64,000 nt of DNA from Pseudomonadota bacterium. GTDB taxonomy: Bacteria > Pseudomonadota > Alphaproteobacteria > JACQOE01. The DNA is taken from positions 10,354 to 74,353 of the forward strand of contig JACQOE010000023.1 in NCBI GenBank assembly GCA_016202695.1, in the 5' to 3' direction. A model generated the notes under the pieces. It did no database searches and was not told the origin of the DNA. It worked only from the letters and a program-made list of their open reading frames with translations. Shown here in pieces: positions 3,543 to 54,841 of the stretch; positions within the stretch are counted from its first letter, which is position 1; each line of letters starts with the position of its first letter. The position numbers and the translations under genes are program-made.

Positions 3543-3845
3543 TTACTTCTCCTTGAACTGGATCACCGGCGCCACGCCACGCAGGGTGAGCTTGATATAG
3601 GCTTCCTTCCTCACCGGCGTTGCCGCGTGATACACGTCCTGCCAAACGCGAGGATCGGCGTAGGCGGTCATCGACTTGTAGAAGTCGCGCCGCGAGAGCG
3701 AGGCGATCACCGCCAGCATTTCGGCCGTGGTCAATCCCATGTTGCGGCCGCCGTCCAGGGCGGTCTTGGTGAAAGCCGCCGCACCCAGCCCCGCGACCTC
3801 CGCCTGGACGCGCGCAAGATCGTAATGGGGCGTGCGCTTGTCCAC
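3543..3845 (-). CDS. mqsR: MqsR-type mRNA interferase toxin
   Basis: 100 aa. KRTPHYDLARVQ..., FYKSMT, VYH..., AYIKL... match the MqsR pattern. Toxin-first order with the downstream MqsA is typical. Confidence 0.85.
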   Translation of the reverse strand: MDKRTPHYDLARVQAEVAGLGAAAFTKTALDGGRNMGLTTAEMLAVIASLSRRDFYKSMTAYADPRVWQDVYHAATPVRKEAYIKLTLRGVAPVIQFKEK

Positions 3846-3850
3846 AGGAC

Positions 3851-3879
3851 GATATTACCCTTTAAGGGTATATTTGCAA
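3851..3879 (-). promoter_or_regulatory. Putative mqsRA promoter with MqsA-like operator palindrome in the spacer
   Basis: Minus strand has TTGCAA (3879-3874), a 16-17 nt spacer holding TACCC-TTAAA-GGGTA (3856-3870), and TAATAT (3857-3852) ending about 7 nt before the GTG at 3845. The palindrome resembles the E. coli MqsA ACCT-N-AGGT operator. Confidence 0.45.
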
Positions 3880-9302: not shown

Positions 9303-9351
9303 CGGAGGGGCGCTATCCGCCTTAGGGAGACGCGCCAGCAGGTAGCGGACC

Positions 9352-9687
9352 ATGCTCTATCTCACCCGCAAGATCGGCGAATCGATCGTCATCAACGACG
9401 ACATCGAGATCACCGTCATCGACGTGCGCGGCAAGACGATCAAGCTCGGCTTCACCTTCCCCTCGGACGTGACCGTGCTGCGCCGCGAGATTTACGAGCG
9501 CATCCAGGCCGAGAACCGCGCCGCCGCCGAGGCAAGCCAGCACCTCAGCGAATCGATGGCGGCGCAGGCGCCTGCGGCGCGCGCGAACGTCGCCAAGGCG
9601 GCGGGCGCGGCCCAGGGCGCGCCCGAGGGCGAGGGCGAGCCGCGGCAGGCCGGAGACGGCCGCCCGGCGGGCGGCACCCTTCCCTGA
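9352..9687 (+). CDS. csrA: Carbon storage regulator CsrA (flagellar type) with ~45-aa Ala/Gly/Pro-rich C-terminal extension
   Basis: [51 protein letters not shown] is a canonical CsrA fold sequence. 111 aa total. Confidence 0.9.
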
Positions 9688-11606: not shown

Positions 11607-12455
11607 TCAGGCGTCGGCGAGAAGCCTGCGGATCGCCGGCGGGTGGTGGAACGCGGCGGCGTGGAACTCGGGGCTATAGTAGCGGGTCTCGACCTTGGCC
11701 GCGGCAACGCGCGCCCTCAGCACCGCCGGGTCGAAGGGCAGGTAGTGCCGGCCCTTCACCGCCCAGCCATAGGCCATCGGCCCGCCGATGTAGGAGGGCA
11801 CCCCCGAGAGATAGCAGCTCGCCTCGTCGAACAGGCCGCGGAAGCAGCGGTAGGACTCCTGCAGCTCGGCCGGCTGCAGGTAGGGTACGCCGTTCTGGGT
11901 CACCAGCACGCCACCCTCGCTCAGGCGGTCGCGGCAGGCGGCGTAGAAGTCCGGGGTGAACAGCACCGCCCCCGGCCCCTGCGGATCGGTCGAGTCGACG
12001 ATGATCACGTCGAAGCTCTGCGCGGTCTCGTGGACGAACTTGATGCCGTCGGTGATGAGGAGCCGGGTGCGCGGATCGTCGAAGGCGCCAGCCGAGATCG
12101 TCGGCAGGTACTCGAGCGAGAGGTCGATCACCTTGCGGTCGATCTCGACCATGGTGACCGTCTCGACCGGATGCTTGAGCGCCTCGCGCAGGCAACCACC
12201 GTCGCCGCCGCCGATGATCAGCACCCGCCGGGCGGCGCCGTGCCCGAAGAGGGGCACGTGCACGATCGCCTCGTGGTAGAAGAACTCGTCGCGCTCGGTG
12301 GTCTGGATGACGCCGTCGAGCGCCAGCACCCGCCCGAAGAACGGGGTCTCGAAGATCACCAGCTCCTGGAGCCCGGTCCTTTCCCTGTAGACCTCGCGGG
12401 TGACCCGGAAACGCTGCCGCAAATGGGCGTGGAGCGTCTCCTCGAACCAGGTCAC
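11607..12455 (-). CDS. speE: Spermidine synthase
   Basis: GTG 12455 overlaps the speD stop (GTGA). LIIGGGDGG, VTMVEIDRKVIDLS, DVIIVDSTDPQGP motifs. 282 aa. Confidence 0.9.
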   Translation of the reverse strand: MTWFEETLHAHLRQRFRVTREVYRERTGLQELVIFETPFFGRVLALDGVIQTTERDEFFYHEAIVHVPLFGHGAARRVLIIGGGDGGCLREALKHPVETVTMVEIDRKVIDLSLEYLPTISAGAFDDPRTRLLITDGIKFVHETAQSFDVIIVDSTDPQGPGAVLFTPDFYAACRDRLSEGGVLVTQNGVPYLQPAELQESYRCFRGLFDEASCYLSGVPSYIGGPMAYGWAVKGRHYLPFDPAVLRARVAAAKVETRYYSPEFHAAAFHHPPAIRRLLADA

Positions 12456-13018
12456 TCGATCAGCCCCCGATCGACCTCGTCGATCAGCAGGCGCTCGGGC
12501 GCGAATGCCGCCGTCAGCACCGGCACCGACTTCTGCGGGTCGCAGTTCCCGCACATGAAAACGTCGATGGCCGCGAACGCACGCTCGGGCCAGGTGTGGA
12601 TGCTGATGTGCGACTCCGCCAGCACCGCCACCCCCGAGACCCCGCCCATCGGGGTGAAGCGGTGGACGTGGACGTGCAGCAGCGTCGCGTTGGCTGCCGC
12701 GACCGCGTCCCTGAGCGCGCGCTCGATCGCCTGCGGGTCGTCGAGGTTCTTCGCCCCCCAGAGGTCGAGCAGCAGGTGGCGACCGGCGAACACCTTGCCG
12801 TCGCGTTCGACGAAGTAGTCCAGCCCGCCGTCCGTGCCCGACTCGGCCGTGGCGCGCGCGGCGCCGGAGCGTGCCGCCGGTCCCTGCGGGCTCGCCTCGG
12901 AAACCGCCGCCACCTTCCAACCCGAACGGGAGAGAGAGTTCACGTCCCGATGCTCCCCCAGCAGACAAGAATAACCCGGAATTGGGGGCTGATTCGCCCA
13001 TTCGGGCGCGGAATGCAA
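12452..13018 (-). CDS. speD: S-adenosylmethionine decarboxylase proenzyme (SpeH/SpeD class 1); start uncertain
   Basis: Self-cleavage motif VLAESHISIHTWPE and DVFMCG. The N-terminal 60 aa of the ORF (TTG start) may be 5' leader rather than protein. Confidence 0.8.
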   Translation of the reverse strand: MHSAPEWANQPPIPGYSCLLGEHRDVNSLSRSGWKVAAVSEASPQGPAARSGAARATAESGTDGGLDYFVERDGKVFAGRHLLLDLWGAKNLDDPQAIERALRDAVAAANATLLHVHVHRFTPMGGVSGVAVLAESHISIHTWPERAFAAIDVFMCGNCDPQKSVPVLTAAFAPERLLIDEVDRGLIE

Positions 13019-13075: not shown

Positions 13076-16000
13076 CTAGTTGATCGCGCTCAGGCGGCCG
13101 CTGCGCACCCGCTCGCGGTAGGCACCCATGAAGGTCTGGAAGCTTTCGGCGAGCTTGATCCCCTCGCCCACCTCCTTGAAGTTGGCCAGGGTCACGTCGC
13201 TCTCGCGGGTGATGAGGGCGAACGCCTCGCGGAAGGGCGTCTTCAGCATCTCGGCCGCGTAACGGCGCTTGAGGCGGCCGAGGCCGCGTTCGTTGTCGCT
13301 GAGCGCCAGCGCCACCGCCAAGCTGGCGACGTCGCGGCTCTCGGCGAGATCGAGGCCGTTGCTGGCGTCCACCCCCGCCGCGACCAGGTTGTCGAGCGCG
13401 AGCGCCGCGGTGCGCCAGTCCCGGCGCTGCCAGTGGATCTCGGCGATCAGGCGCAGCCCGTCGACGCTTTCGTCGCCCTTGAGGACGGCGAGCGCCTCCT
13501 CGAGCTTGCCGTCCTCGACCAGGGCGCGGGCGCGGAGGTGCCGGCGCTGACCCGCCAGCTCGCCGGGAAGGCCGGCGATCTCGGTCTCGTCCAGCACCTT
13601 GAGCGCCTCCAGGGGCGCCTTGTTCAGGAGGTGGATGAGGGCGAGGCGGGCGCCCACGCGCGAGCGCTGCTCCCCCTTCAGCCGGTAGGTGATCTGGTGA
13701 TCGAGAACCTCCGCCGCCTTGCCCAGGAGGTCGACCGACACCAGCCGGTCGGCGAGCCGGCGGATCATCTCGTCGCCCTTCTCGCCCGCCGGGGTCAGCT
13801 CGCGGAACTCGTCGTAGAGCGCGATGGCGGTGATCGGCGGCATGGTGTCGGCGAGGCCGGCGAGGTAGAGCTCGTTGAAGGCGGTGGCCATCTTCAGGGT
13901 CACCAGCTGGGCGTCGCGATGGGTGGGGAAGTAGGTGGCGGCGATCTTCAGGGTCCTGAGCCCGTCGCGGTAGTTCTTCTCCTCGAAGTAGAGGTCGGCG
14001 AGCCGGTTGAGGAGGTCGAACTCGAAGTCGTCGCCCCGCCAGGCGAAGCGGAGCTTCTCCATCGCCTCGATCGCCGTCGGCCGGTCGATGCGCTCGATGC
14101 GCATCAAGAGGTCGAGCCGGGCGAGGTCGGCCTGGGAACGGGCCCGCCGGTCGCCGAACCGCTCGACCGAGTTCCAGGCGGCCAGCGCACCGTCGAAGTC
14201 GCCGCGGGCCTCGAGCAGCCGGCCGCGCAAGTACTCGTACTGGCCGGTATCGACCAGGGTGGTGTCGCCGCCCCGCTGCTGCTCGCGGGCGAGGATGCGG
14301 AAGATCTGCTCGGCGCGGCGCACGTCGCGGGTCTTGAGCGCGGCCTCGAAGGCGACCGACCCCAGCCGGCTCTTGAGCTTGGGCGGATAGGTGGGCAGCA
14401 GCGCCGCTCCGCTCCGGAACAGCGTCGCCGCGCCGCGCCAGTCGCCTCGCTGGGCGGCGAGCACCGCCCGCCACAGCTCGGCCTCGGTGTTCCTGGCCAG
14501 CGACGGGTGGCCAAGATCGGGCGTCGCCTCCTCGATCCGGCCCATGAGCAGGTTGGCCGCCCCGCGCATCAGCCGGAAGCCCGGATCGTCGGCCGCCTTC
14601 TCGTCGGCCCGGGCGATCACCTCGAGGATGCCGAGCGCCTCGGCGTCGAAGCCGTGGGCGAAGTAGAGGCGGGCGAGATCGAGCCGGGCGGAGTTGCGCC
14701 GGGCGCGGGGCGAGGCGATGATCGCCGCCTCGATCGCCTTGACGTTGGCGGTGAAGCCCTCGAGCCCGCCGCGCGCCCAGGCGTCGAAGTCGAACAGCCG
14801 GCTCACCGCGCTCGGCTCTCCGAGCGCCCTCTCCTGGGCCAATTGGCGGGTGTCGGGGGTGGCGGCGAGCCCGCCCGGGCGGGCGATGGTCAGTCCGCCC
14901 TGTGCGGTGCGGACGATGAGGTCGTCGGCCGTCGGCTCGATCACCACCCCCTGCGGGGTGGCGAGCAGCTTGAGGTCGGGATAGACCCGCTCCATGCGCA
15001 CCCCCAGCCCCGGGGTCTGGAGGGGCACGGCGAGGAGCATGTCGCCGACCTCGGGATCGCCGAAGCGCACGACCCTGCTGGTGCCGGTCGCCCGGATGAT
15101 GAGGGCGGTGCCCAGGGTGCGGCTTTGGCGGGCCTCGACCTCGACGGTCGATTCGGGCTCGACGTCGATGCGGGTGAAGGTCGCGATCCAGGCCCGCCCG
15201 TCGCGCCGGAAGCGGGGGTTGACGCCGTCGGGAAGGGTGAGCCGCAGCGCCGTCGCGCCCGGGGTCGGGATCTGGCGGGTGTCGGCGAGGAGCGGCTGCG
15301 CGCGCACCTGCGCGAGATCGAGCTGCGCCTCCTCGTCGAACAGGAGCCAGAGCTGACCGGCGCGGCGGAAGGCGGCGGCGCCCACCGCCCCCGGCCAGGG
15401 GAAGGTGAGGACGACCTCGCTCCCCTCCGCCTTCGCCGCCACCGCGAGCGCGCCGACCGGCGCGATCCGGGGCTCCTCCGGCCGCGAGGGCTCGGCCCCC
15501 GGCTGGCGCTCCTCGGCCTCGGCTCCGGCGCCGGTGAGCGCCGGGACCGCGGCCTCGCGCGGCGGCACCAGCGGGCGCGGGCGACCGCCCTCGGGGGCGG
15601 CGCCTTCGGCGGCCGCGACCTGGGGGGCGCGCGGCGCCTCGGCGACCGGAGAGGTGGCCGCCGGCGCGGCGCCCGGGGCGGATCCGGCGGGCGCGACCGT
15701 CGGGGCCTCGGGGGCCCGCGGCGAGACGGCCGGGGGCGCCGCCTGGCCGGCGCCAGAGGGGGCGGCGATGGTACGGGAGAACCGCCCCGAGCGGCGCGGC
15801 TCCTCGGCAGCGGGGACGGTAGCGTCTGCCGCCGGCGCGGCCTTTGCAGGCGCGACCGGCGCCGGCGTGGCGGGGCCGGCCGCCGGCCGCACGGCGGCGG
15901 TCCCGGCGGGCCGCGCCCGAGCCGGGGACGGCGGGCCGGCCGCGGCGGCGCCCGAGCCGTCGAGCACGTCGAGGACGATCCGGGTGCCGCTGCGGAAGTG

Positions 16001-16687
16001 ACGGACGCGCGCCCCCGGGCCGACGCCGAGGTTGAGGCTGAGCCCGTTTTGGTCGACCACCGCCTCGGCGCTCAGCACCTGGGCCGGGAGTTGCCCGCGC
16101 AGGCGGGCGAGATCGACCCCGGCCGGGCGGTCGAAGGCAACGACCACGATCTCGCCGTCCCGGCTGACCCGGTAGTCGACCGCCTGCGACCAGTCGAAGA
16201 CGAGGCGCCCGAAGCCGGCGTGCGCGCCGGTCCGCACCGGGAGTTCGCCGCCGGCCGGGGCGCGGGTCTCCTGGACGCCGCCGGGCGGCGACGGCGCGGC
16301 GGGGGCGGCCGCGGCCGGGCCAAGGAGGTCGACCACCACCGCCATGCCGTTGTTGAAGGTGCGAAGACCGAAGCTGCCGGTGAGCGAAAGCGTCAGCGTC
16401 CGGCCATCGGGGCCTGCCTCGGCCCCGGTCACGTATCCGCCGAGGTTGCGCACCAGCGGCGAAAGGTCGGTCCGGAACGGGCGGTCGAAGCCGACCACCA
16501 GCCGGGTCCCGGTCACCGTCGCCACATGGGCGACCGGCGTCCCCCAGTCGAAGACGATGCGGCCGTAGCCCTCGTGGGTCCAGGCGCGGGTGACGACCTC
16601 GGCCCGGTCCTGGGCGCCCGCCGCCGCCCAGCCGAGGGCGGCGACCGCGAGGAGGAGGGCGAGAAGCCGGCCGGCGGGGCGGCGCAT
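13076..16687 (-). CDS. 1203-aa secreted protein: AMIN-like beta modules + Pro/Ala linker + long TPR-like region; candidate periplasmic motor-associated scaffold
   Basis: Start ATG 16687 overlaps the motB stop (TGATG). Signal peptide MRRPAGRLLALLLAVAALGWAAAGA. Repeated modules GYGRIVFDW... and GFGRLVFDW.... About 190 aa of P/A-rich linker. The C-terminal ~700 aa are helical repeats. The 1412-aa ORF N-extension was rejected. Confidence 0.75.
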   Translation of the reverse strand: MRRPAGRLLALLLAVAALGWAAAGAQDRAEVVTRAWTHEGYGRIVFDWGTPVAHVATVTGTRLVVGFDRPFRTDLSPLVRNLGGYVTGAEAGPDGRTLTLSLTGSFGLRTFNNGMAVVVDLLGPAAAAPAAPSPPGGVQETRAPAGGELPVRTGAHAGFGRLVFDWSQAVDYRVSRDGEIVVVAFDRPAGVDLARLRGQLPAQVLSAEAVVDQNGLSLNLGVGPGARVRHFRSGTRIVLDVLDGSGAAAAGPPSPARARPAGTAAVRPAAGPATPAPVAPAKAAPAADATVPAAEEPRRSGRFSRTIAAPSGAGQAAPPAVSPRAPEAPTVAPAGSAPGAAPAATSPVAEAPRAPQVAAAEGAAPEGGRPRPLVPPREAAVPALTGAGAEAEERQPGAEPSRPEEPRIAPVGALAVAAKAEGSEVVLTFPWPGAVGAAAFRRAGQLWLLFDEEAQLDLAQVRAQPLLADTRQIPTPGATALRLTLPDGVNPRFRRDGRAWIATFTRIDVEPESTVEVEARQSRTLGTALIIRATGTSRVVRFGDPEVGDMLLAVPLQTPGLGVRMERVYPDLKLLATPQGVVIEPTADDLIVRTAQGGLTIARPGGLAATPDTRQLAQERALGEPSAVSRLFDFDAWARGGLEGFTANVKAIEAAIIASPRARRNSARLDLARLYFAHGFDAEALGILEVIARADEKAADDPGFRLMRGAANLLMGRIEEATPDLGHPSLARNTEAELWRAVLAAQRGDWRGAATLFRSGAALLPTYPPKLKSRLGSVAFEAALKTRDVRRAEQIFRILAREQQRGGDTTLVDTGQYEYLRGRLLEARGDFDGALAAWNSVERFGDRRARSQADLARLDLLMRIERIDRPTAIEAMEKLRFAWRGDDFEFDLLNRLADLYFEEKNYRDGLRTLKIAATYFPTHRDAQLVTLKMATAFNELYLAGLADTMPPITAIALYDEFRELTPAGEKGDEMIRRLADRLVSVDLLGKAAEVLDHQITYRLKGEQRSRVGARLALIHLLNKAPLEALKVLDETEIAGLPGELAGQRRHLRARALVEDGKLEEALAVLKGDESVDGLRLIAEIHWQRRDWRTAALALDNLVAAGVDASNGLDLAESRDVASLAVALALSDNERGLGRLKRRYAAEMLKTPFREAFALITRESDVTLANFKEVGEGIKLAESFQTFMGAYRERVRSGRLSAIN

Positions 16688-17397
16688 CAGCCCTCTCCGG
16701 TCTTGTCCAGGATGACCACGTCGACCCTCCGCGCGAGATCGAGCCGGCGCTCGCGGGGAAGGCGGGTCGTGATCAGCTCGAAGAGCGCGTCGGCGGCGCC
16801 GAAGGTGAGCACGCGGCGGGTGTAGCCCGCCCGGTGCATCTCGTTGGCGACCGAAGTCGCGCGCACCAGCGAGAGCTCCCAGTTGGAGGAGAAGCCCCGC
16901 CCGGTGACCGGCTGCGGATCGGTGTTGCCGTAGATCGCCACCAGGTTGGGGATGTTGCGCAGGATGCCGGCGAGGATGAATAGCGCGTTGCGCGCGCGGT
17001 CGTCCACCCGCACGCTCGCCGGGGCGAACAGGAGGTCGGTGGGCAGCGAGATCACCAGCCGGTCGTCGAGCCGGGTGAGGGTGCTCAGGTTCAGCACCGG
17101 GTCCTGGACGAGCTTCTGCTCGATCACGGCAAACATGTAGTCGAGGTTGGCCGCCGGCTGGGTGTCGGTGGTGCCGATGTTGAACTGGGCGGCGGGGGCG
17201 GCGTCGGTCTGAGTCGTGGGCGCGAAAGTGCGCGACATCGAATCGACCACCTCGGCGTACTCGTCGACCTTCATCTTCGACATCGCGAACAGCATGACGA
17301 AGAAGACGAGACACAGCGAAATGAGGTCGGCGAAGGTGAGCATCCAGGCCAGACTTCCCGGTTGCGCTTGCGGGACTTCATCGTCGTCGGTGGCCAT
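16687..17397 (-). CDS. motB: Flagellar stator protein MotB (OmpA-like C-domain)
   Basis: WMLTFADLISLCLVFFVMLF has the conserved Asp. PG-binding GNTDPQP...NWELSLVRATSVANEMHRAGY. Confidence 0.85.
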   Translation of the reverse strand: MATDDDEVPQAQPGSLAWMLTFADLISLCLVFFVMLFAMSKMKVDEYAEVVDSMSRTFAPTTQTDAAPAAQFNIGTTDTQPAANLDYMFAVIEQKLVQDPVLNLSTLTRLDDRLVISLPTDLLFAPASVRVDDRARNALFILAGILRNIPNLVAIYGNTDPQPVTGRGFSSNWELSLVRATSVANEMHRAGYTRRVLTFGAADALFELITTRLPRERRLDLARRVDVVILDKTGEG

Positions 17398-17400
17398 CGC

Positions 17401-18090
17401 TCACCCCCGGCGCCGGGCAAGGTCGGAGAAGTCGAGCACCGGCTCGTCGTCGGCGTGCAGGTAGAAGAAGAACTCCAGATTCTTGACCGGGCTCGGCTTG
17501 AGCCCGACCCTGAGCACCGACTTGGGCGCCCCGCGCTCGAGGAGCTGGCGGGCGAAGTTGCCGGCGCGGGCGACCTCGAGCGACGGGGTCTCGGGCAGCT
17601 TGTTGCCTGGCTCGTAAGGGGTGTTGATCAGGAACTCGAGCTCGTTCCGGTAGCCGGGCGGGCGCGCCGCGAGCGCCGCCGCAAGCCGCTCCAGGAACGG
17701 GCCGAGACCCGGCCTGATCGTAGCCGAGTCGGTCTCGAACAGCGCCTCGGGATGCATGCGGATGTACATCTGCCGGCCCGGCTGGACCACGTTCACCTGC
17801 GCCACCGGGATCGCCGTGGTGAACAGGTTGCCAAGGCGCTCCATGGCCTGGAGCGGGGTGAACGCCTCGCCCTGCTGCGAGGTGAACGGCACCGGCTTGG
17901 TCGAGGGCGGGATCAGCGACGAGAAAGCCGAGATCAGGCTGTCCATCACCTTCTTGGCCCTCACGTCCTCGAGCGTGGAGAGCGTGTTGAGGAGGATGAA
18001 GAAAGCCAGAAGCAGCAGGTACAGCGACAGGAACAGCGCGATCGAGGGGTCCGCCGTCTGCGGCTTCTTCGGGGCGTCGTCGTCGTCCAT
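17401..18090 (-). CDS. MotB-like paralog lacking the channel Asp and with degenerate OmpA motifs (pseudo-stator subunit)
   Basis: TM helix IALFLSLYLLLLAFFILL has Ser at the position aligned with MotB Asp. C-domain LFETDSATIRPG...LEVARAGNFARQLLERG is only loosely OmpA-like. Its stop lies 3 nt before the motB start. Confidence 0.6.
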   Translation of the reverse strand: MDDDDAPKKPQTADPSIALFLSLYLLLLAFFILLNTLSTLEDVRAKKVMDSLISAFSSLIPPSTKPVPFTSQQGEAFTPLQAMERLGNLFTTAIPVAQVNVVQPGRQMYIRMHPEALFETDSATIRPGLGPFLERLAAALAARPPGYRNELEFLINTPYEPGNKLPETPSLEVARAGNFARQLLERGAPKSVLRVGLKPSPVKNLEFFFYLHADDEPVLDFSDLARRRG

Positions 18091-18236
18091 CGAACCTCAG
18101 CGGTCCCGGGCCGCGGGCGACGCCCAAGCCGCAGGCGCGCGACAACTGGGCGCGCACCCGTGCCCGGGCGCAAGTGTACCACAAACGAGGCGGTCGGACG
18201 ATGCGCGCATGGCTAGCGCCGTGGCTGCGGGCCGGC

Positions 18237-19037
18237 TCAGCCGCCGGCCTCCTTCGCCTCCTTGGGGAGCTGCCGGCGCTCGGCGATCGCCGCCGTCAAC
18301 GTCTTGGCCCTCTCGGGGTCCATGGCGGCGAAGATCGGCGCCGTCTTCGCCTCGCGCATGCGCTCGACCACGTCGAGGACGATCGGCAGGTCGAGCTGCT
18401 CGAAGATGCGGGCGGCGTCGCGCGGCTTCATCGCCTCGTAGATCTTGACCAGGCTCTTGAGCTTCTCCTCCTCCTGCTCGCCGTACTTCTTGAGCAGGCC
18501 CTCGATGGTGGTCTTGAGCTCCTTGAGGTCGGCGATCTTCTTGTCGAGCCGCTTCTCGGCCGCCTGCAGCAGCCCTTCGCGCTGGACGATCTCGGACTCG
18601 CGCCGCTCGATCTCGTCGCGCCGGACGGCGAGGCCCTGCAGGAGCTCGATCTCGGCGCGGGTGAAGAGGGTGGGATCCGCGGGCAGCGCTTCGCCCGCCG
18701 GCTTTGCGGTCGGGCCCTTGCCGGCGCGGGCGCGGCCCGTTTCCAGCTCCTTGGCGAGGTCGGCGGCGGTGCCGCCGAAGGCCGACGCCTCGGGGAGCGT
18801 CTTCTTGATCCCCTTCTCCTTCGCCTCGCCCTCGCCGGCCTGCTGCGGAGCCGGCTTCGGCTGCGCGCGCGCCGGGGCCTGCTGTTGCTGCTGCGCCTGC
18901 GCCTGCTGCTGCGCCTGAGTCTGGGCCACGGCGAGGAACGCCGGCCCCGAAACCCCGCGCAGGATGTCGCCGAGCTTGACCGAGAGCAAGAGCGCGCCGC
19001 CGAAGATCACGGCCGGGAGGAAGCGAATCCGGAACAT
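18237..19037 (-). CDS. motE: MotE/FlbB-like protein (MgtE_N-type domain)
   Basis: N-terminal TM, Gln-rich stretch, coiled coil. C-terminal KIYEAMKPRDAARIFEQLDLPIVLDVVERM...AMDPERAKTLTAAI matches the MotE pattern. Confidence 0.7.
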   Translation of the reverse strand: MFRIRFLPAVIFGGALLLSVKLGDILRGVSGPAFLAVAQTQAQQQAQAQQQQQAPARAQPKPAPQQAGEGEAKEKGIKKTLPEASAFGGTAADLAKELETGRARAGKGPTAKPAGEALPADPTLFTRAEIELLQGLAVRRDEIERRESEIVQREGLLQAAEKRLDKKIADLKELKTTIEGLLKKYGEQEEEKLKSLVKIYEAMKPRDAARIFEQLDLPIVLDVVERMREAKTAPIFAAMDPERAKTLTAAIAERRQLPKEAKEAGG

Positions 19038-19053: not shown

Positions 19054-19524
19054 TCAGCGACTCGCCTCGAGCGCGCGCAGGAGCTCGCGCTCGGTCTCGG
19101 AGCGGGTGGCGCCGGCGAAGCGGTCGCCGAGCGCGGTCGCGGCGCGGCCCGGCCGGACGGCGGGAGTCGCCTTCTCGGCGCGGGCGCTGGCCACGGCCCG
19201 GGCCCGCTGAACCTCGGACTCGAGGCGGTCGGCGAGGTCGCCGCCCCGCTTCGCCATATAGCTCAGGTCGTCCATCAGGGTTTGGGCCTTGCTCATCTCC
19301 TGCTGAAGCATCTTGCCGGTGTCGGCCGCCGCCGCGCGCAGCTTGTGGAGGCTGCCCTCGGCGCGGATGGTGGCCTCGTTGAAGCGGGCGATCAGATTGA
19401 TCAGCTCCGACTTGTCGCCCCTGAGCACGCCGAGACGCCGGTTGAGGATGTAGGCATAGACGATCGTCGCGACCAGCAGCACCGCGATGACCAGGTCGAG
19501 AGCGAGGGTGAGCACTGCCATCAT
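19054..19524 (-). CDS. Small bitopic coiled-coil protein downstream of fliM (DUF6468/PflI-like)
   Basis: Internal ATG 19524 gives MMAVLTLALDLVIAVLLVATIVYAYIL plus a coiled coil. Same position as pflI in the Caulobacter fliL-fliM operon. The remainder of the 496-aa ORF was rejected. Confidence 0.45.
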   Translation of the reverse strand: MMAVLTLALDLVIAVLLVATIVYAYILNRRLGVLRGDKSELINLIARFNEATIRAEGSLHKLRAAAADTGKMLQQEMSKAQTLMDDLSYMAKRGGDLADRLESEVQRARAVASARAEKATPAVRPGRAATALGDRFAGATRSETERELLRALEASR

Positions 19525-19529
19525 AGCCT

Positions 19530-20639
19530 TCAGCTTACTTTCTTGACGATCCGATCCACGACCTGCACGGCGACGCGGTCGCCCTTGCGGCCGGTGACGG
19601 CGGTGAACATCGGCACCTCGCCGCAGCGGACCGCGACCTGGGTGTGCGGGGTGGCGTTGAGGAGGATGCGCGAGCCGGGCTGGAACCCGAGCACGTCGCG
19701 CAGCCGCATGGTCTGCTCGTCGAGGACCACGTCGAGCTGGATCTCGGTCAGCCACAACTCCCGGGCGAGGTGCGTCTCCCAGATCGAGTCGCGGCCGAAC
19801 TTCTCGCCCATGAACATCTGCAGCAGAAGCTCGCGCACCGGCTCGAGGGTGGCATAGGGCAGAAGCAGCTCGAGGCGCCCGCCGCGGTCCTCCATGTCGA
19901 TCCTGAGCTTGGCGACGATGCCGGCATTGGAAGGGCGCGAGATGGTGGCGAAGCGGGGGTTGGTCTCCAGCCGCTCGAAGCGGAAGGTGACCGGGCTCAG
20001 CGGGTCGAAGGCGGCGGATAGGTCGCCCAGCACCACGTGCACCATGCGCTCGACCAGGTTGCGCTCGATGGTGGTGTAGGGCCGACCCTCGATGCGCATC
20101 GCCGCCGTGCCCCGCCGGCCGCCCAGGAGCACGTCGACGATCGAATAGATGAGGGAGCTGTCGACGACCAGGAGCCCGTAGTTGTCCCACTCCTCGGCCT
20201 TGAACACGGCGAGCATGGCGGGAAGCGGGATCGAGTTGAGATAGTCGCCGAAGCGCAGCGAGACGATGTTGTCGAGCGAGACCTCGACGTTGTCGGACGT
20301 GAAGTTGCGCAGACTCGTCGACATCATCCGCACCAGCCGGTCGTAGACCACCTCCAGCATCGGCAGGCGCTCGTAGGAGACCATGCCGCTGTTGATGATT
20401 TGCTGGATGCCGGAGCGCTCGCCGCCCTCGCCCGCCTCCTCGTCGAAGCCAAGCAGGCTGTCGATCTCGTCCTGATTGAGCACCCGCCCCGAGGTCGGCA
20501 CGCCCTCGCCCGCGGCCGCCGCCTCCTCGGCCATCGTTCCCCACTCGGCGCCGCCGGCCTTCTCGGAGACGGGCTTGACCTCGTCGCCGGCGCCGCTCGC
20601 CGGCGCTCCGTTGCCGGCGCTGGTCGGTGTGTCCGCCAT
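19530..20639 (-). CDS. fliM: Flagellar motor switch protein FliM
   Basis: CheY-binding-type N-motif LNQDEIDSLLGF. FliM middle and FliN-like C-domain pattern. 369 aa. Confidence 0.95.
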   Translation of the reverse strand: MADTPTSAGNGAPASGAGDEVKPVSEKAGGAEWGTMAEEAAAAGEGVPTSGRVLNQDEIDSLLGFDEEAGEGGERSGIQQIINSGMVSYERLPMLEVVYDRLVRMMSTSLRNFTSDNVEVSLDNIVSLRFGDYLNSIPLPAMLAVFKAEEWDNYGLLVVDSSLIYSIVDVLLGGRRGTAAMRIEGRPYTTIERNLVERMVHVVLGDLSAAFDPLSPVTFRFERLETNPRFATISRPSNAGIVAKLRIDMEDRGGRLELLLPYATLEPVRELLLQMFMGEKFGRDSIWETHLARELWLTEIQLDVVLDEQTMRLRDVLGFQPGSRILLNATPHTQVAVRCGEVPMFTAVTGRKGDRVAVQVVDRIVKKVS

Positions 20640-20705: not shown

Positions 20706-21269
20706 CTATTGGATTAACATTTCCCTAAAAAGCACGTCGTTGATCTTGGTCGGAGCGGTGGCCGCGTTCACCCGCGCCAGAAGCTCCTCGCGCAGCCGGT
20801 AGACGCCGGCCGAACCGTGCAGGTCCTCCACCCTGAGCTCGCGCAGGTAGACCTGGAAGTTGTCCATGATCCGCGGCAGCGACGATTCGAGCTTGCTGGC
20901 GTCGTCGGGGTTGTCGAGCTCGAGCGTCACCCGCATCTTCAGGTACTGCGCCTTTCGCCCGCTGGCGTTGAGGTTCACGAGCACCTCGGGGAGCTCGTAG
21001 AAGGTCCCGGTTCGCGCCTTCTTCTGGCGCTCGATCTTCTCATCGGACGGGGGCTTCTCGGCGACCTCGTCGCCGCGACCGAAGATGAGGGCGATCAGGG
21101 GGTCGGCGGCACCGGTGAAGTAGGCGCCCGCGGCCGCCCCGATCACCAGGAGGAGCGGCAGCACCACCAGGAAGATGAGCCGCTTGCTGCCCTTCTTGCC
21201 CTCGCCGACCTCGACTTCGCCGGCCTCGAGGTCGCCTTCGTCCTGCTGGTTTGCGTCGTCGTCGGCCAT
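20706..21269 (-). CDS. fliL: Flagellar basal-body-associated protein FliL
   Basis: ATG 21269 preceded by GAGG. TM LIFLVVLPLLLVIGAAAGAYF. FYELPEVLVNLN...YLKMRVTLEL FliL signature. Confidence 0.9.
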   Translation of the reverse strand: MADDDANQQDEGDLEAGEVEVGEGKKGSKRLIFLVVLPLLLVIGAAAGAYFTGAADPLIALIFGRGDEVAEKPPSDEKIERQKKARTGTFYELPEVLVNLNASGRKAQYLKMRVTLELDNPDDASKLESSLPRIMDNFQVYLRELRVEDLHGSAGVYRLREELLARVNAATAPTKINDVLFREMLIQ

Positions 21270-21333
21270 GGCCTTGCCTCGCACGCTCCTTGCCCGCGCC
21301 CGCCGATACTAGGGCGGGCGGGTTAACGAGAGG

Positions 21334-31924: not shown

Positions 31925-32017
31925 GGAGCGACGACGATGCACACCCAAGCGGTTTCCGTCCGGGAGGGTCGAGGTTTCGACGATCCCGTCCCCATCCACA
32001 TGAGGAGTGAAGAGTCG

Positions 32018-32521
32018 ATGAAGACTGCCACCGTCCAGGCCAGCCCCGCCTTCGAGGCGGAGGTCGCGGCCGAGCCCTCGGCCGAGGTTCCGGGCTCGAT
32101 CGTCGTCGAGACCCGCTTCGGCGAGATCGAGTTCCAGTGGGACAAGGCCCTCTACATGCCGACCGGCCTGCTCGGCTTCCCCGAGCACCATGCCTTCGGC
32201 CTCGCCAACCTGCCGAACCAGCAGATGTCGCAGTTCAAGCTGCTGCAGTGCCTCACCGATCCCGGCATCTCCTTCATCGTCGCGCCGCTCAACGTCGAGA
32301 GCGGGGCGATCGCCGGGGAGGACCTGGCGAAGGCCGGGGCCTCGCTCGCCATCCTCCGGGGGGACATGACCGTTCTCCTGGTGGTCACGGTGCGCAAGGC
32401 CGAGCAGGGGATCGCCATGACCGTCAACCTGCAGGCGCCGATCATCATCGACATGCGGCGCCAGACGGCGTGGCAGTTCGTCCTGCCCGGCGAGAAGTAC
32501 CCGGTGCAGCGGCCGCTCTGA
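32018..32521 (+). CDS. fliW: Flagellar assembly factor FliW (CsrA antagonist)
   Basis: ATG 32018 preceded by GAGGAG. VETRFGEIEF...GLLGFPEHHAFGL...FKLLQCL...FIVAPL...TVNLQAPIIID pattern. Confidence 0.85.
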   Translation: MKTATVQASPAFEAEVAAEPSAEVPGSIVVETRFGEIEFQWDKALYMPTGLLGFPEHHAFGLANLPNQQMSQFKLLQCLTDPGISFIVAPLNVESGAIAGEDLAKAGASLAILRGDMTVLLVVTVRKAEQGIAMTVNLQAPIIIDMRRQTAWQFVLPGEKYPVQRPL

Positions 32522-37885: not shown

Positions 37886-37994
37886 CGCCCGGCCCAGAAG
37901 TTCTTGCCCGCGAGGGGGCGGAATTTTCCTTTTCCTGTCTCACGGGCGATTTGAAAAGTTATTTATTTTCATTGAGTTAGATTGATCTTCCCGG

Positions 37995-38010
37995 TGGCCC
38001 GGGGCTTGCT
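37995..38010 (+). promoter_or_regulatory. sigma54 (-24/-12) promoter of fliK-flgD-flgE
   Basis: TGGCCC-GGGGC-TTGCT with correct spacing, about 56 nt upstream of ATG 38066. Preceded by a conspicuous AT-rich tract at 37940-37990. Confidence 0.65.
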
Positions 38011-38065
38011 CCATCCCCCTCGGCATCACGCCGCGGAAGGCAAGAGCCTCAGGACACACCACACC

Positions 38066-39853
38066 ATGACCATCCCCCCGCTGGAGACGACCAGTCCGTT
38101 CGAGGCCCTCGGCATCCCGGTCAAGACGGGTCCGCAGGGCCCCGCCTTCTCCGACTTCCTGAGGGCGGCGACGGATCGCGCCTTCGAGCCGACCGAGCCG
38201 CTGCGCGAGCGGGTGGAGGAGACGGCCGGCGCCGCCGATCGCCCGCGGCACGAGGAGCGGGCCGACCGGGACACGCGCCGGGCCGCGGACCGCGATCGCG
38301 CCGACGAGCCGGCGGCGGGCGCGCGGAAGCGCGACCGCGAGACGAGCCCCGAGGCCGAGCGCGCCCGCGGGCACGACGAGGCCGGGCCGGGCGACGAGTC
38401 GCGCCGGCCCGAGGCGCCGCCTCGGCGCGAGCCGGCCCGGGCGCGCGACGAGACCCGCTCCGGCGACGAGACGGGCCCCGCCGACAAGGCCGAGGCCGAG
38501 TCCGTCGCCACATCCGCGCCGGCCTCCGTCACCGACATCCCGGCCGCAGCCGGCGCCGTGCCCCTCACGGGCGCGCTCGCCGCGGCCGCCGCCGGTGCCG
38601 CCCCGACCTCGACTCCGGGCGCCGACGTGAGCGGCCTGGTCGCAGCGGCGGTGCTCAACGAGATCCACCAGGCCCAGGGCGCCCGCCCCGGGCCGGTCCC
38701 CGCGGCCGCCGTCGGCGGGCCCGCGACGCTGGTTTCGCCGACCGCCCTCCTGGCTGCCGGCGCCGGCGAGGGCGAGGCTCCCGCCGCCCCGCAGCCCGGC
38801 ACCGCCGAGGGCCAACAGGTCGAGGTCATCCGCACCGGCCTCGCCGCCACCGCGCAGGCCGCGGTCGAGCAGCTCAAGGAGCGCCTTGCGCGGCCCGGTG
38901 AGGGCCAGCGCCCGGCGTCCGGCGAGCGCGTCGGCGTCAAGGTCGAGGTCGCCCGCGCCGGCGAGCAGATGGTTTCGCGGCCGTCCGCCAGCCTCGCCCC
39001 GAACGCGGCCCTGGCCGCGGCCGAGGCCGAGGGCGATGAGGGCGACGCGCAGCCCGGCTCGGCTCACGCCCTCGGCAAGGGCGAGTCCCGGCCCGGCACC
39101 GCTGCCGGCGCCGCCGGGCCGGCGACCCCGGGCCCGCAGCGCGACGCCGCCCCCGGCCAGCCCGACCCCAACCCCGCCGCCGGGCGTGCGTCCTTTGCCC
39201 CGCTCCCGGGGACGGCCGAGGGCGAGCGGGCCGTGCGCGCCCGCGCCGAGAGCCGACCCGGCTTCTCCCCGGCCGCTGGACCGACCGCCGAGCCCGGCCG
39301 ACCTGCCGGGGCGACGGGCGGATCGGACGGTGCCGCCCCGGCCGGCGGCGCATTCGCGCCGAGCGCGCCCGCCGGCGCCGCCTCGACCGGCGCCTCGCAG
39401 GCCGGGCGTCCGCCCCTGCCCCCGCCGGCCGTTTCCCAGCAGGTGGCGGTCCACATCCTCAAGGCGGTGGACCAGGGCAGCGACCGGATCAGCATTCAGC
39501 TCCGCCCCGAGTCGCTCGGCCGGGTGGACGTGCGGCTCGATGTCGGCCACGACGGCCGGGTGAGCGCGATGATCAGCGCCGAGAGGCCGGAGACGCTGGA
39601 GCTCTTGCAGCGCGATGCGCGGAGCCTCGAGCGGGCGTTGCAGGACGCCGGCCTCGGCGCCGACTCGAATTCGCTCAGCTTCAACTTGCTCGGGCGCGGC
39701 TCGCGCGAGCCGGGCTTCGGGCGCGATCTGGCCGGGGTCGGCCTCGATGCCCCGCTCGGGCCTGAGGCCGACGAGGCTCCGATCGAGGTCACCCAGGTCG
39801 ACGGCGCGAGCTACGTCAGCCGCGGCGCCGGCGGCGTGGACATCCGCGTCTGA
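38066..39853 (+). CDS. fliK: Hook-length control protein FliK
   Basis: Internal ATG 38066. Pro/Ala-rich centre. C-terminal Flg_hook-type SDRISIQLRPESLGRVDVRLDVGHDGRVSAMISAERPETLELLQRDARSLERALQDAGL. Confidence 0.85.
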   Translation: MTIPPLETTSPFEALGIPVKTGPQGPAFSDFLRAATDRAFEPTEPLRERVEETAGAADRPRHEERADRDTRRAADRDRADEPAAGARKRDRETSPEAERARGHDEAGPGDESRRPEAPPRREPARARDETRSGDETGPADKAEAESVATSAPASVTDIPAAAGAVPLTGALAAAAAGAAPTSTPGADVSGLVAAAVLNEIHQAQGARPGPVPAAAVGGPATLVSPTALLAAGAGEGEAPAAPQPGTAEGQQVEVIRTGLAATAQAAVEQLKERLARPGEGQRPASGERVGVKVEVARAGEQMVSRPSASLAPNAALAAAEAEGDEGDAQPGSAHALGKGESRPGTAAGAAGPATPGPQRDAAPGQPDPNPAAGRASFAPLPGTAEGERAVRARAESRPGFSPAAGPTAEPGRPAGATGGSDGAAPAGGAFAPSAPAGAASTGASQAGRPPLPPPAVSQQVAVHILKAVDQGSDRISIQLRPESLGRVDVRLDVGHDGRVSAMISAERPETLELLQRDARSLERALQDAGLGADSNSLSFNLLGRGSREPGFGRDLAGVGLDAPLGPEADEAPIEVTQVDGASYVSRGAGGVDIRV

Positions 39854-46881: not shown

Positions 46882-47706
46882 ATGGCTGACGCCGGCGAAG
46901 TTGCAGGCAGCGTATCGATCGGCGCCGCGCGCACACAGCTCGACCTGGCCACGGTCATCGGGCTGGTCGCCGGCTTCGGCCTGGTGGCCGCCGCCCTCGT
47001 CCTCGGCGGCGCCCCGGGCGCGTTCGTCGACATCCCCTCGGTGCTGATCGTGATCATCGGCACGTTGTCGATCACCATGGTCTCGTACTCCCTCACCGAG
47101 ATGCTGAGGGCCGGCAAGCTGTTCATGAAGACCATGTTCTTCTCCGGCCGCGACGCCTCGGAAGCGGCGATGCAGGTGCTCCAACTGGCCGAGATCGCCC
47201 GCAAGAGCGGCGTCTTGTCGCTGCAGAACGTGCTCGAGGACCTCAAGAGCGAGCAGTTCCTCTACAAGGGCATCTCGCTGGTCGTCGACGGCACCCCCGG
47301 CGAGGAGGTCGAGGTGATCATGCGCCGCGACATGAACTCGACCCTCGCCCGCCACCAGAGGAGCGCCGGAATCATGCGCCGCGCGGCCGAGGTCTCGCCG
47401 GCCATGGGCCTGATCGGCACCCTGATCGGGCTGGTGCAGATGCTCGGCAACCTCGAGGACCCCTCCAGCATCGGCCCGTCGATGGCGGTGGCGCTGCTGA
47501 CCACCTTCTACGGCGCGGTCATGGCCAACATGCTGTTCCTGCCGCTGGCCGCGAAACTCGACCGCAACTCCCAGGAGGAGGCGCTGACCAACAGCGTGTT
47601 CCTGATGGGGGCGGCCTCGATCGGCCGGCAGGAGAACCCGCGCCGGCTGGAGATGCTGATCAACAGCGTGCTGCCGCCGGCGAAGCGGGTGAGCTTCTTC
47701 GAGTAG
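46882..47706 (+). CDS. motA: Flagellar stator protein MotA
   Basis: Four-TM MotA/TolQ/ExbB pattern. PAMGLIGTLIGLVQML, AVALLTTFYGAVMANMLFLPLA. Confidence 0.85.
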   Translation: MADAGEVAGSVSIGAARTQLDLATVIGLVAGFGLVAAALVLGGAPGAFVDIPSVLIVIIGTLSITMVSYSLTEMLRAGKLFMKTMFFSGRDASEAAMQVLQLAEIARKSGVLSLQNVLEDLKSEQFLYKGISLVVDGTPGEEVEVIMRRDMNSTLARHQRSAGIMRRAAEVSPAMGLIGTLIGLVQMLGNLEDPSSIGPSMAVALLTTFYGAVMANMLFLPLAAKLDRNSQEEALTNSVFLMGAASIGRQENPRRLEMLINSVLPPAKRVSFFE

Positions 47707-53116: not shown

Positions 53117-53131
53117 CGCCCTGATCGGCCC

Positions 53132-54841
53132 ATGACCTCGGTCACGCCCCCGCTCGCGATCCCGCAGCCGCCGACGGCGGCCCAGCAGCCGGTCACGCTT
53201 GCGCTCGCCGAGGCGTCGAAGGCGGTGCGGGCGCTGGCGGTCGGAAGCCTGCTCAGCGGCGAGGTGGCGCAGGTGCGCGAGGGGCTGGTGGCGCTGCGCA
53301 CGCCATTGGGCCCGGTGGCCCTGGCGGCCAACCTCTCCGTCGCCGTCGGCGCCCATCTCACCCTCAGGATCGCCGCCGGCGGCGAGCGCGGGCAGGTGCA
53401 GCTCCTCGCCCTCGGCGACCGTCCCGTGGTCGGCCTCCGCGGCGCCAGCCTGCTGGTCAAGGGCGCCGTCCCCACCGGGGCGATCGCCACCGCCGCCGCC
53501 GCGACCGTGGGCGCGGGCGTGAGGGCGGCCATCGCTCCGCTCGCCCCCGGAACCACGCTCGCCGCGACGCTCGTGCGCGCGCCTCCCACCGCCCCCGGCG
53601 CCGCGGCGCCGGCCCCGGCGTCGGCGCCGGGCGGGCTCGGCGCCGTCCTCGCCGCCGGCGCGCCGCTCTCGGTGCGGGTGCTCGCCGTCACCCCCACGGG
53701 GGCGGCCGGAGCGGCGACCCCGACGCCGGGCGCCCCCGCCCTCCAGCCCGGGCCGGGGCCGGCGGGTGCGGTCGTCGCCGCCACCGTGGTCGCCGCCGCC
53801 GGCGGCCAGACCCTGGTGCAGAGCCCGATCGGCTGGCTCTCGCTCGCCACCCCGGCGACGCTGCCGCTGGGCACCAGCCTGTCGCTCGAGATCACCGCCG
53901 GCGCGGTCGCCTCGCACGGCCCCGCCGAGCAGGGCGCCTCGGGCCCGGCGGGCGCGGCCCAGACGGCGGCGGCGGGCGCGACGCCGGCCGCCCCGGGGGC
54001 ATCACCTCCGCCCGCCGTTGCCACCGGCCTCTCGGGCCCGGGCCTGAGCGTCGCCGCCCAGAGCACCCTCCAGCAGGTTCCGGCGGCCGGGACCCCGGGC
54101 GCCGAGGCCGCCGCCGAGCGGCCGGCGCCGGCGGCGCCCGCCGGCGCGGCAACCGCGGCCGAGGAGTCGGCGCAGGTCCCTCGCCCCTGGCCGAGCCTGA
54201 CCGAGGCGGTGCGGCTCCTCGCCGCCGCCGAGCCGATGGCCTATCGACAGCTCCTGCAGGCGCTGCCCCAGCCCGGGCCGCAGCTCACCGCCAACGTCCT
54301 CTTCTTCCTCGTCGCGCTGCGCGGCGGCGACGTCAGGGCGTGGCTCGGCGAGGGGCCGCTGCGTGCGCTCGAGCGGGCGGGGCGGGGCGACCTCGTCGCC
54401 CGCCTGGGCGAGGAGTTCCGGCGGGGCGGCCGCGGCCTCGGCGAGCCCGCCGCGGGCGAGTGGCGGAGCGTCGGCCTTCCCTTCTTCACCGGCGCCGCGG
54501 TCGAGGAGGTGCGGCTTCACCTGCGCCGCCACGGCGAGGAGGCCGACGAGGAAGGCGGGCGCGGCGGCGGCGCCGAGACCCGCTTCGTGATCGACCTCGA
54601 CCTCTCCCGCCTCGGGCGCATGCAGCTCGACGGCTTCGTGCGCAAGGCGACCCGGCGCTTCGACCTGATCGTGCGCACGCGCGCGGCGCTGCCGGTCGCG
54701 ATGCGGGGCGAGATCAACCGCATCTTCTCCGAGTCCTGCGCCGCCACCGGCCTTGCCGGCGAGATCGGCTTCCAGGCCACGGCCCGGTTCGTCGAGGTCG
54801 AGCCCGCCCCGCCGGCCCGCCACGAGGGCATCCTGGCATGA
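53132..54841 (+). CDS. Unknown 569-aa protein with Pro/Ala-rich centre and FliK-like (Flg_hook-like) C-terminal module
   Basis: Three loosely repeated N-terminal beta-like segments (GEVAQVREGLVALRTPLG...GAHLTLRI etc.). C-terminal TRFVIDLDLSRLGRMQLDGFVRKATRRFDLIVRT resembles the FliK ISIQLRPESLGRVDVRL pattern. Starts 16 nt after flhG. Confidence 0.55.
   Translation: MTSVTPPLAIPQPPTAAQQPVTLALAEASKAVRALAVGSLLSGEVAQVREGLVALRTPLGPVALAANLSVAVGAHLTLRIAAGGERGQVQLLALGDRPVVGLRGASLLVKGAVPTGAIATAAAATVGAGVRAAIAPLAPGTTLAATLVRAPPTAPGAAAPAPASAPGGLGAVLAAGAPLSVRVLAVTPTGAAGAATPTPGAPALQPGPGPAGAVVAATVVAAAGGQTLVQSPIGWLSLATPATLPLGTSLSLEITAGAVASHGPAEQGASGPAGAAQTAAAGATPAAPGASPPPAVATGLSGPGLSVAAQSTLQQVPAAGTPGAEAAAERPAPAAPAGAATAAEESAQVPRPWPSLTEAVRLLAAAEPMAYRQLLQALPQPGPQLTANVLFFLVALRGGDVRAWLGEGPLRALERAGRGDLVARLGEEFRRGGRGLGEPAAGEWRSVGLPFFTGAAVEEVRLHLRRHGEEADEEGGRGGGAETRFVIDLDLSRLGRMQLDGFVRKATRRFDLIVRTRAALPVAMRGEINRIFSESCAATGLAGEIGFQATARFVEVEPAPPARHEGILA

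Follow-up and report, generated by a model that had tools for sequence, protein, structure and literature searches.

An Asp-less MotB paralogue encoded with MotB and a probable, enlarged PflA/MotK/FssB-type spoke protein in an alphaproteobacterial flagellar supercluster

The 64,000-nucleotide stretch analyzed here (the window: positions 10,354 to 74,353 of contig JACQOE010000023.1, assembly GCA_016202695.1, from a Pseudomonadota bacterium) is a GC-rich (~70%) alphaproteobacterial flagellar supercluster. Its fliL-fliM operon ends with three genes that encode, in this order, a MotB-shaped protein lacking the proton-binding aspartate (pseudo-MotB), a canonical MotB, and a secreted protein of 1203 residues (BIG). 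An earlier reading of the same DNA, here called the original prediction, had presented these three proteins as a candidate undescribed periplasmic stator scaffold. The evidence from the locus itself, described below, comprises its gene structure and synteny, the domain architecture and fold similarity of its proteins, and their patterns of conservation. Together with published work on related systems, this evidence makes it probable that BIG is a spoke of the PflA/MotK/FssB type, working within a Rhodospirillales-type E-ring/spoke stator scaffold that is encoded here together with a stator B subunit.

All genes of the operon lie on the minus strand. The first is fliL (20706-21284; Pfam FliL, E = 2.9e-21), followed by fliM (19530-20639; Pfam FliM, 1.3e-64; TIGR01397, 7e-89), a gene for a 155-residue single-pass membrane protein with a DUF6468 domain (19054-19521; Pfam DUF6468, 3.3e-21), and the gene for a 266-residue MotE/FlgY/FlbB-type E-ring protein (18237-19037), composed of an N-terminal transmembrane (TM) helix, a coiled coil, and an MgtE_N head. 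A gap of 146 nt (18091-18236) separates motE from the gene for pseudo-MotB (17401-18090, 229 residues), whose stop stands 3 nt before the start of motB (16687-17397, 236 residues). The stop of motB in turn overlaps the start of the BIG gene (13076-16687, stop included) in the sequence TGATG. The three open reading frames (ORFs) and the overlap are as originally described; that reading of the operon had its genes right but missed the upstream MotE, which is key to the system. The five genes are called identically on an independent public contig, and the sequence of BIG is identical to a hypothetical protein from a metagenome-assembled genome (MAG) labeled 'Proteobacteria bacterium'. A scan of the operon for a terminator and a promoter returned nothing exceeding chance. 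The only motA of the window (46882-47706, plus strand, read from its translation) follows fliN and has no motB after it. It lies 28.8 kb away, in keeping with the distance already noticed, and the canonical MotB gene of the operon is the sole motB of the window.

The canonical MotB has the expected equipment, with Asp24 in its TM helix, a plug (Pfam MotB_plug, 3.4e-14), and an OmpA-like domain (Pfam OmpA, 1.6e-5) that contains GNTD and NWELSLVRA, and the TM aspartate is present in 61 of 61 orthologues. The aspartate of the GxTD motif occurs in only 40 of these 61 proteins, while that of the TM helix is invariant.

Pseudo-MotB is built like MotB and PomB, in that a single N-terminal TM helix with the AFF motif is followed by a plug-like helix and, at the C-terminus, an OmpA-like domain; it differs from both in that the universal aspartate is replaced by Ser, Gly, or Ala throughout the family and the aspartate of GxTD is absent. 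Its score against Pfam MotB_plug is 22.1 bits (threshold 24), and several MotB models of NCBIfam also score below their cut-offs. With hhalign, it aligns to the MotB profile at a probability of 99.1% over 187 columns that comprise the TM helix, the plug, and the OmpA-like domain, and Ser22 falls opposite Asp24, the substitution claimed at the outset. In the AlphaFold2 (AF2) model, with a predicted local distance difference test score (pLDDT) of 88.8, a single long TM/plug helix precedes an OmpA-like domain, which in the PDB is matched best by the periplasmic domains of MotB from Salmonella (the top match) and Helicobacter. Among 58 syntenic orthologues, the residue at the aspartate position is Ser in 43, Gly in 8, and Ala in 6; among the 150 top-ranking representatives of clusters at 50% identity, it is Ser in 83, Gly in 34, Ala in 26, Cys in 2, and Pro in 1. 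Aspartate is found in 0/58 and 0/150, respectively. Because this invariant residue is absent, pseudo-MotB is not a functional MotB. Its peptidoglycan motifs, which had been called degenerate, have indeed lost the GxTD aspartate (INTP). Of the 58 orthologues, however, 55 retain the OmpA-type Arg175, and the motif is therefore only partly degenerate.

The family is large: 977 cluster representatives match at E <= 1e-3, 469 of them even at E <= 1e-10, and every member whose name was looked up is annotated 'hypothetical protein'. In every locus that has it, the pseudo-MotB gene lies directly upstream of motB, with a 3-nt spacer or an overlap, and divergent representatives occupy the same flagellar context. 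No other part of the protein is as conserved as its TM helix, where column entropy averages 1.07, compared with 2.33 over the full length. In the same genomes, the corresponding TM values are 0.89 for MotB, 1.47 for FliL, 1.67 for MotE, and 1.83 for the DUF6468 protein; despite its conserved helix, pseudo-MotB is overall the most divergent of the proteins compared. Nearly every position between residues 20 and 34 is conserved, the MotB-type motif LxxLLxAFF(I/V)xL is retained, and positions conserved in at least 90% of sequences number 16 in the syntenic orthologues and 15 in an 80-sequence alignment of cluster representatives. Conservation on all faces of the helix would fit a segment buried in an assembly, by analogy with MotB inside the MotA pentamer. 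One locus (L074, 8368-9165) contains a divergent pseudo-MotB-like ORF with a TM aspartate two residues out of register (LLALDLMLMAFF), which could be a reversion or an intermediate. As regards published work, a literal search with incomplete coverage, and hence a weak negative, found no relevant literature on an Asp-less MotB paralogue; pseudo-MotB is apparently a component of the locus without a known description.

The architecture of BIG agrees with what had been read from its sequence. It starts with a Sec-type signal peptide (residues 1-25, MRRPAGRLLALLLAVAALGWAAAGA; 16613-16687; cleavage site predicted), which is the only hydrophobic segment above the Kyte-Doolittle threshold, and it has no TM helix. 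Two tandem AMIN-like beta modules of ~95 residues each follow, at residues ~30-122 (16322-16600) and ~148-243 (15959-16246); they match each other in BLASTP with an E-value of 4e-17, and their region is conserved across 32 orthologues. A low-complexity linker of 176 residues (245-420; 15428-15955) is composed of 33% Ala and 20% Pro and fails to align between homologues. The AF2 model of residues 420-1203 (pLDDT 84) then shows two further beta-sandwich modules (strands spanning ~424-602, feature boundaries ~421-605; 14873-15427), with 7 and 8 strands at a pLDDT of ~80-90, followed by an alpha-superhelix of ~29 helices resembling tetratricopeptide repeats (TPR; residues ~635-1160; 13208-14785), a region that also gives weak Pfam TPR and generic PDB TPR matches. 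The 'probably two more modules' of the original prediction are thus present in the model, and hhalign shows the first of them to be a homologue of N-terminal module 2 (94%, E = 1.2e-7), so that BIG carries three, probably four, modules of one kind. The central pair occupies the same position as the AMIN-like beta-sandwich of PflA. The TPR-like part holds the conserved motifs LRFAWRGDDFE and ELTPxGxxGDEMIRRLADRL; WRGD and GDEMIRRLADRL mark this motif region.

These features place BIG beside the PflA-type spoke proteins (PflA, CC_2058, MotK, and MotC, as grouped by Feng et al.) in three respects: it is periplasmic with a signal peptide, it has a beta-sandwich followed by a TPR superhelix, and it is encoded in a flagellar cluster near MotE. 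PflA itself consists of an N-terminal beta-sandwich, which has been termed AMIN-like, a linker, and 16-17 TPRs that form radial spokes. In a Foldseek search of 350,542 PDB chains with the model of residues 420-1203, the best match was 9hmf_K, from the periplasmic flagellar scaffold of Campylobacter jejuni (E = 8e-10), with an alignment of 816 columns that spans both proteins. From its length and the published model, we take this 773-residue chain to be mature PflA. Closer to home, the TPR domain of BIG aligns with a protein from an Erythrobacter flagellar plasmid (hhalign 99.9%) and with a TPR protein from a flagellar plasmid of Salipiger, a member of the Roseobacteraceae (97.5%).

These plasmid proteins are short versions of the spoke, of 548 residues in Erythrobacter aureus (L084, 7986-9632) and 601 residues in Salipiger (L083, 7827-9632); they align to BIG over the TPR part only, and their length is insufficient for either the AMIN-like modules or the central beta modules. 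A further FliL-family gene, in the opposite orientation, is present in the Erythrobacter locus.

MotE (COG3334) would supply the second element of the scaffold. It lies two genes upstream in the same operon, and its ARM-like head matches Pfam MgtE_N with 28.3 bits (cut-off 25.9); the protein also matches the NCBIfam model collar_FlbB at 3.8e-9, below the cut-off of that model. In size and topology, it resembles CC_2059 of Caulobacter, which has 264 residues and a TM helix (PMC13023049). The MotE/FlgY/FlbB family is now regarded as the only constituent of the E-ring that surrounds the MS-ring (PMC13023049), and in each characterized system its member is paired with a TPR protein: FlgY with PflA, MotE with MotK in Cereibacter sphaeroides, MotE with MotC in Sinorhizobium meliloti, and CC_2059 with CC_2058 in Caulobacter, the last two being considered a FlgY/PflA pair (PMC11870540, PMC13023049). 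Deletion of CC_2058, named FssB, leaves flagella assembled yet paralyzed (PMC7885107), and MotK, which has an AMIN domain and TPRs, gives a Mot- mutant and binds MotE and MotB2 (PMC10954123).

A comparison with these systems shows what is shared and what is particular to BIG. PflA (C. jejuni and Helicobacter pylori; PDB 9HMF) is likewise secreted and combines an AMIN-like beta-sandwich with a linker and a TPR superhelix (~16-17 repeats), and it partners the E-ring protein FlgY, whose place is taken here by MotE, and positions stators. However, BIG has no detectable sequence similarity to PflA, is ~400 residues longer, has two beta modules beside the TPR part instead of one, and carries at its N-terminus, on a Pro/Ala tether, two AMIN-like modules that PflA does not have. 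No homologue of Campylobacter PflB is evident in the operon of the window, and the PflC, PflD, and FlgP disks fall outside this system. MotC of S. meliloti is also periplasmic, TPR-rich, dependent on MotE, and needed for rotation, but it is without an AMIN-like domain, and motE lies there between flgI and flgH. This pair has been known since 2004, and MotC has 434 residues.

MotK of the C. sphaeroides Fla2 system shares with BIG a periplasmic location, an N-terminal AMIN-like domain, TPR-like helices, and a gene in a fliL/motE cluster, and it is needed for rotation and not for assembly (PMC10954123). It differs in having 652 residues, a single AMIN-like domain, and no described MotB paralogue, a comparison made by description only. 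FssB of Caulobacter crescentus, compared in the same way, is likewise secreted, has TPRs and an AMIN-like N-terminus, and is encoded immediately downstream of the motE homologue CC_2059; in that species, motB has a different genomic location, and fssB has no reported Asp-less MotB beside it. Among other accessory proteins with OmpA domains that may be set beside pseudo-MotB, Vibrio MotY is without a TM helix and the OmpA-extended TssL belongs to another machine.

Characterized alphaproteobacterial equivalents therefore exist, contrary to the claim that there were none: MotC and MotE of S. meliloti, FssB (PMC7885107), and MotK (PMC10954123). Nor does the scaffold stand as a novelty, given that Feng et al. 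(PMC11870540) and a review of the E-ring (PMC13023049) treat such proteins as PflA homologues that partner MotE or FlgY. Feng et al. list PflA-like proteins of 1102-1242 residues beside a FlgY homologue in Magnetospirillum, Thalassospira, Rhodospirillum centenum, Rhodopseudomonas, and Maricaulis. Their Thalassospira FlgY and PflA accessions are five apart, which is the spacing in the Thalassospira locus examined here (motE, cheY, cheZ, pseudo-motB, motB, BIG). Because the published list and the locus spacing match, the family of BIG is already catalogued as an alphaproteobacterial PflA-type spoke, and the scaffold itself is not new. BIG is probably a new, enlarged member of this known spoke class, and the members from Rhodospirillales appear not to have been studied experimentally.

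Relatives of BIG were located by its conserved motifs; at least 580 species genomes encode one, and synteny was read in the best 80 loci, all of them close relatives. Linkage of the homologues to flagellar genes had been set beforehand as a test of the prediction, and the prediction withstands it. In essentially every one of these 80 loci with upstream sequence, the order is fliL-fliM-DUF6468-motE-(cheY-cheZ)-pseudoMotB-motB-BIG. The DUF6468 gene stands between fliM and motE in nearly all loci with upstream sequence (for example L085, 4579-5037), including that of the Erythrobacter plasmid (L084, 5928-6557), and no mention of the domain was found in the literature. In most relatives, cheY (128 residues) and a cheZ-like gene are inserted between motE and pseudo-motB (L018, 7159-8251; L058, 7329-8392; L085, 5845-6986). 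Since the gap in the window measures only 146 nt, both genes were lost or never gained in this organism. A motA gene had been suspected in the corresponding 1.2-kb gap of the relatives; tblastn found no MotA in any locus, and the gap is occupied by cheY and cheZ.

The arrangement suggested by the characterized homologues can be outlined as follows. MotE would form the hub of a ring-and-spoke assembly encircling the MS-ring, and the TPR superhelix of BIG would run radially from this hub to the stator ring, with its beta-sandwich end near the stators, as in PflA. The beta-sandwich modules beside the TPR part may hold a peripheral partner in the way the PflA beta-sandwich holds PflB, and the two additional N-terminal AMIN-like modules, on their tether of ~175 Pro/Ala-rich residues, may fasten the assembly to the peptidoglycan. 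By analogy with FssB and MotK, the assembly would recruit MotA5-MotB2 units, set their radius, and aid their opening. If BIG has such a role in recruiting, positioning, and opening stators, flagella lacking the spoke should be assembled but paralyzed. The expected Mot- phenotype and the binding of MotE and MotB are carried over from the characterized relatives, and the geometry in this organism is one that we infer, as is any role of pseudo-MotB. The functional idea of the original prediction, in which a periplasmic structure would anchor or recruit stators, is in line with the behavior of the characterized relatives and analogues; the cage or ring of these three proteins that it proposed is conjectural.

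Within this arrangement, pseudo-MotB would be a MotB-type subunit that is conserved, does not conduct, and is produced together with MotB. The most likely of its possible places is a MotB-type position in the MotA pentamer, where it would tie stator, scaffold, and wall together structurally instead of carrying protons. That it shares one stator unit with MotB as a heterodimer is a tentative possibility, falling short of an even chance; residence in separate MotA complexes is decidedly unlikely, and a role of some other kind is unlikely as well. A fuller version, in which pseudo-MotB is a true stator subunit (as MotA5-MotB-MotB' with one aspartate, or as interleaved non-conducting MotA5-MotB'2) whose OmpA-like domain docks onto the spoke instead of the peptidoglycan, is on the present evidence unlikely.

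Several points weigh against the account given so far. The link between BIG and PflA rests on fold and architecture, which by themselves offer a lead and not proof: the TM-score against 9hmf_K is 0.27 with 11% identity, and the match is nearly equaled by those of many unrelated TPR proteins. A PDB profile search with the sequence of BIG returned generic TPR proteins only (BcsC, E = 0.04) and no match to PflA, and BIG is likened to MotK, MotC, and CC_2058 by description and context, not by direct sequence comparison. The AMIN identity of the beta modules is no firmer. No profile match to AMIN (PF11741) or AMIN-like (PF24837) exceeds the curated threshold. Matches to PF24837 recur in many homologues of BIG, but every one is below the gathering score; the best in BIG itself, in module 2 (E = 2.8e-4), reaches 21.4 bits against a cut-off of 27 and covers ~30 residues. 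Alignment with residues 34-145 of Escherichia coli AmiC by hhalign has a probability of 2.4%, with the first strands in register, and a PDB profile search with the N-terminal modules gave chance matches only (PilQ, E = 2.3; lp_1913, E = 0.03). The modules are accordingly called AMIN-like here, sequence comparison being insufficient to establish them as AMIN. At the level of the locus, ~10 related loci, such as that of Magnetospirillum moscoviense (L078), have the spoke gene directly after the motE region with neither MotB gene next to it, so the pairing of spoke and MotB is not obligatory. The gene order in Caulobacter, presumably fliL-fliM-CC_2060-CC_2059-CC_2058, would match these loci. For pseudo-MotB, binding to MotA, MotB, or the spoke is putative, and no flagellar MotA5B2 stator that combines two different B subunits is known to us from the literature.

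Further searches bear on the same comparisons. AMIN-like matches in four homologues of BIG score 24.9-25.3 bits over only ~25-30 residues. Three protein searches, with full-length BIG, with a 13-sequence profile, and with a C-terminal profile without the linker, gave matches dominated by Rhodospirillales, with no Caulobacter protein among the matches listed.

The alternative that survives best concerns pseudo-MotB, which might be a free-standing inner-membrane anchor of the scaffold outside the MotA pentamer, its OmpA-like domain binding the spoke beta-sandwich, the peptidoglycan, or both. In C. jejuni, the N-terminal beta-sandwich and linker of PflA bind membrane-anchored PflB, an interaction essential for scaffold assembly, and the candidate PflAB homologues outside Campylobacterota are more PflA-like than PflB-like (Feng et al., PMC11870540). 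A membrane partner of the spoke might be sought in pseudo-MotB, whose gene lies between motE and that of the spoke wherever it was found and which keeps the OmpA-type arginine in nearly all orthologues (55/58). The TM helix and plug-like segment, however, are conserved on all faces, close to the level of MotB and far above the anchors of FliL, MotE, and the DUF6468 protein, as would suit a helix buried in a protein complex, and the MotB-type LxxLLxAFF(I/V)xL motif is kept. This alternative is considered somewhat unlikely.

A second alternative follows the original view of MotE in S. meliloti and makes MotE and BIG a chaperone-client pair that aids the folding or opening of stators without being a permanent part of the motor. 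MotC is degraded in the absence of MotE, which was proposed as its chaperone (PMC13023049), and in C. sphaeroides the dependence of stability is reversed, which again speaks for a close pairing (PMC10954123). Nevertheless, MotE-sfGFP localizes at the flagellar structure independently of MotK, MotA2, and MotB2 (PMC13023049), FlgY and FlbB are visible as rings in situ, and a protein of 1203 residues with several AMIN-like modules of wall-binding type and a long tether looks structural. A transient chaperone role is for these reasons very improbable.

Two further explanations can be set aside. That BIG is a generic periplasmic TPR protein (BcsC-, YbgF-, or BamD-like) lying beside flagellar genes by chance is scarcely credible, for although sequence searches of Pfam, NCBIfam, and the PDB yield only weak generic TPR matches, its flagellar synteny is kept in the 80 loci, in divergent members, and in plasmid flagellar clusters, its start overlaps the motB stop, and its best fold match is a flagellar scaffold chain; the BcsC-like and YbgF-like identities were considered and rejected, and profile searches, the other test set beforehand for the prediction, place BIG in no unrelated family and so do not refute it. 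That pseudo-MotB is a decaying duplicate or an annotation artefact has virtually nothing in its favor beyond the missing proton-binding and peptidoglycan-motif aspartates, set against an intact reading frame with a GC content at third codon positions (GC3) of 0.94, a family of hundreds of cluster representatives with conserved positions, a confident fold, and a fixed place in the operon.

Other features of the window touch this operon only as neighbors. Genes for S-adenosylmethionine decarboxylase (AdoMetDC) and spermidine synthase (11607-12943), unrelated polyamine genes, lie directly 3' of the spoke gene, as they do in ~20 of the 80 loci (including L007, L018, L021, L031, L032, L040, L041, and L047). 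Within the flagellar cluster, reading by eye found a CsrA-like ORF (9346-9687) and a FliW-like ORF (31925-32521), which suggests a CsrA-FliW flagellin feedback circuit. The cluster also has two very GC-rich ORFs (~77-78%), one of 574 codons that is visibly rich in Ala and Pro (53117-54841) and one of 625 codons (37976-39853) that is FliK-like by its position just upstream of a FlgD-like ORF. Towards the edges of the window, outside the flagellar genes, reading by eye again found a GNAT-type ORF (1327-2100), a small MqsR-like ORF (3543-3854), and a restriction-modification-like ORF of 1330 residues (57755-61744).

Taken as a spoke, BIG brings the Rhodospirillales into the range of the E-ring/PflA-type scaffold, in a version elaborated by a long tether and probably four AMIN-like modules, and its recognition would be of use in annotation, where genes of this type are labeled 'hypothetical' or 'TPR protein'. 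Pseudo-MotB is the more valuable point, a large and conserved MotB-shaped family that is unable to carry protons and is always co-encoded with the spoke and the true MotB. As a separate anchor, pseudo-MotB could occupy the PflB-like position at the rim of the scaffold, no PflB homologue having been seen in the operon. If instead it sits in MotA pentamers, it would provide a natural experiment on the stator mechanism and a new form of coupling between stator and scaffold; a heteromeric or 'dummy' flagellar stator of this kind would bear on whether both aspartates are needed in the 5:2 rotary mechanism.

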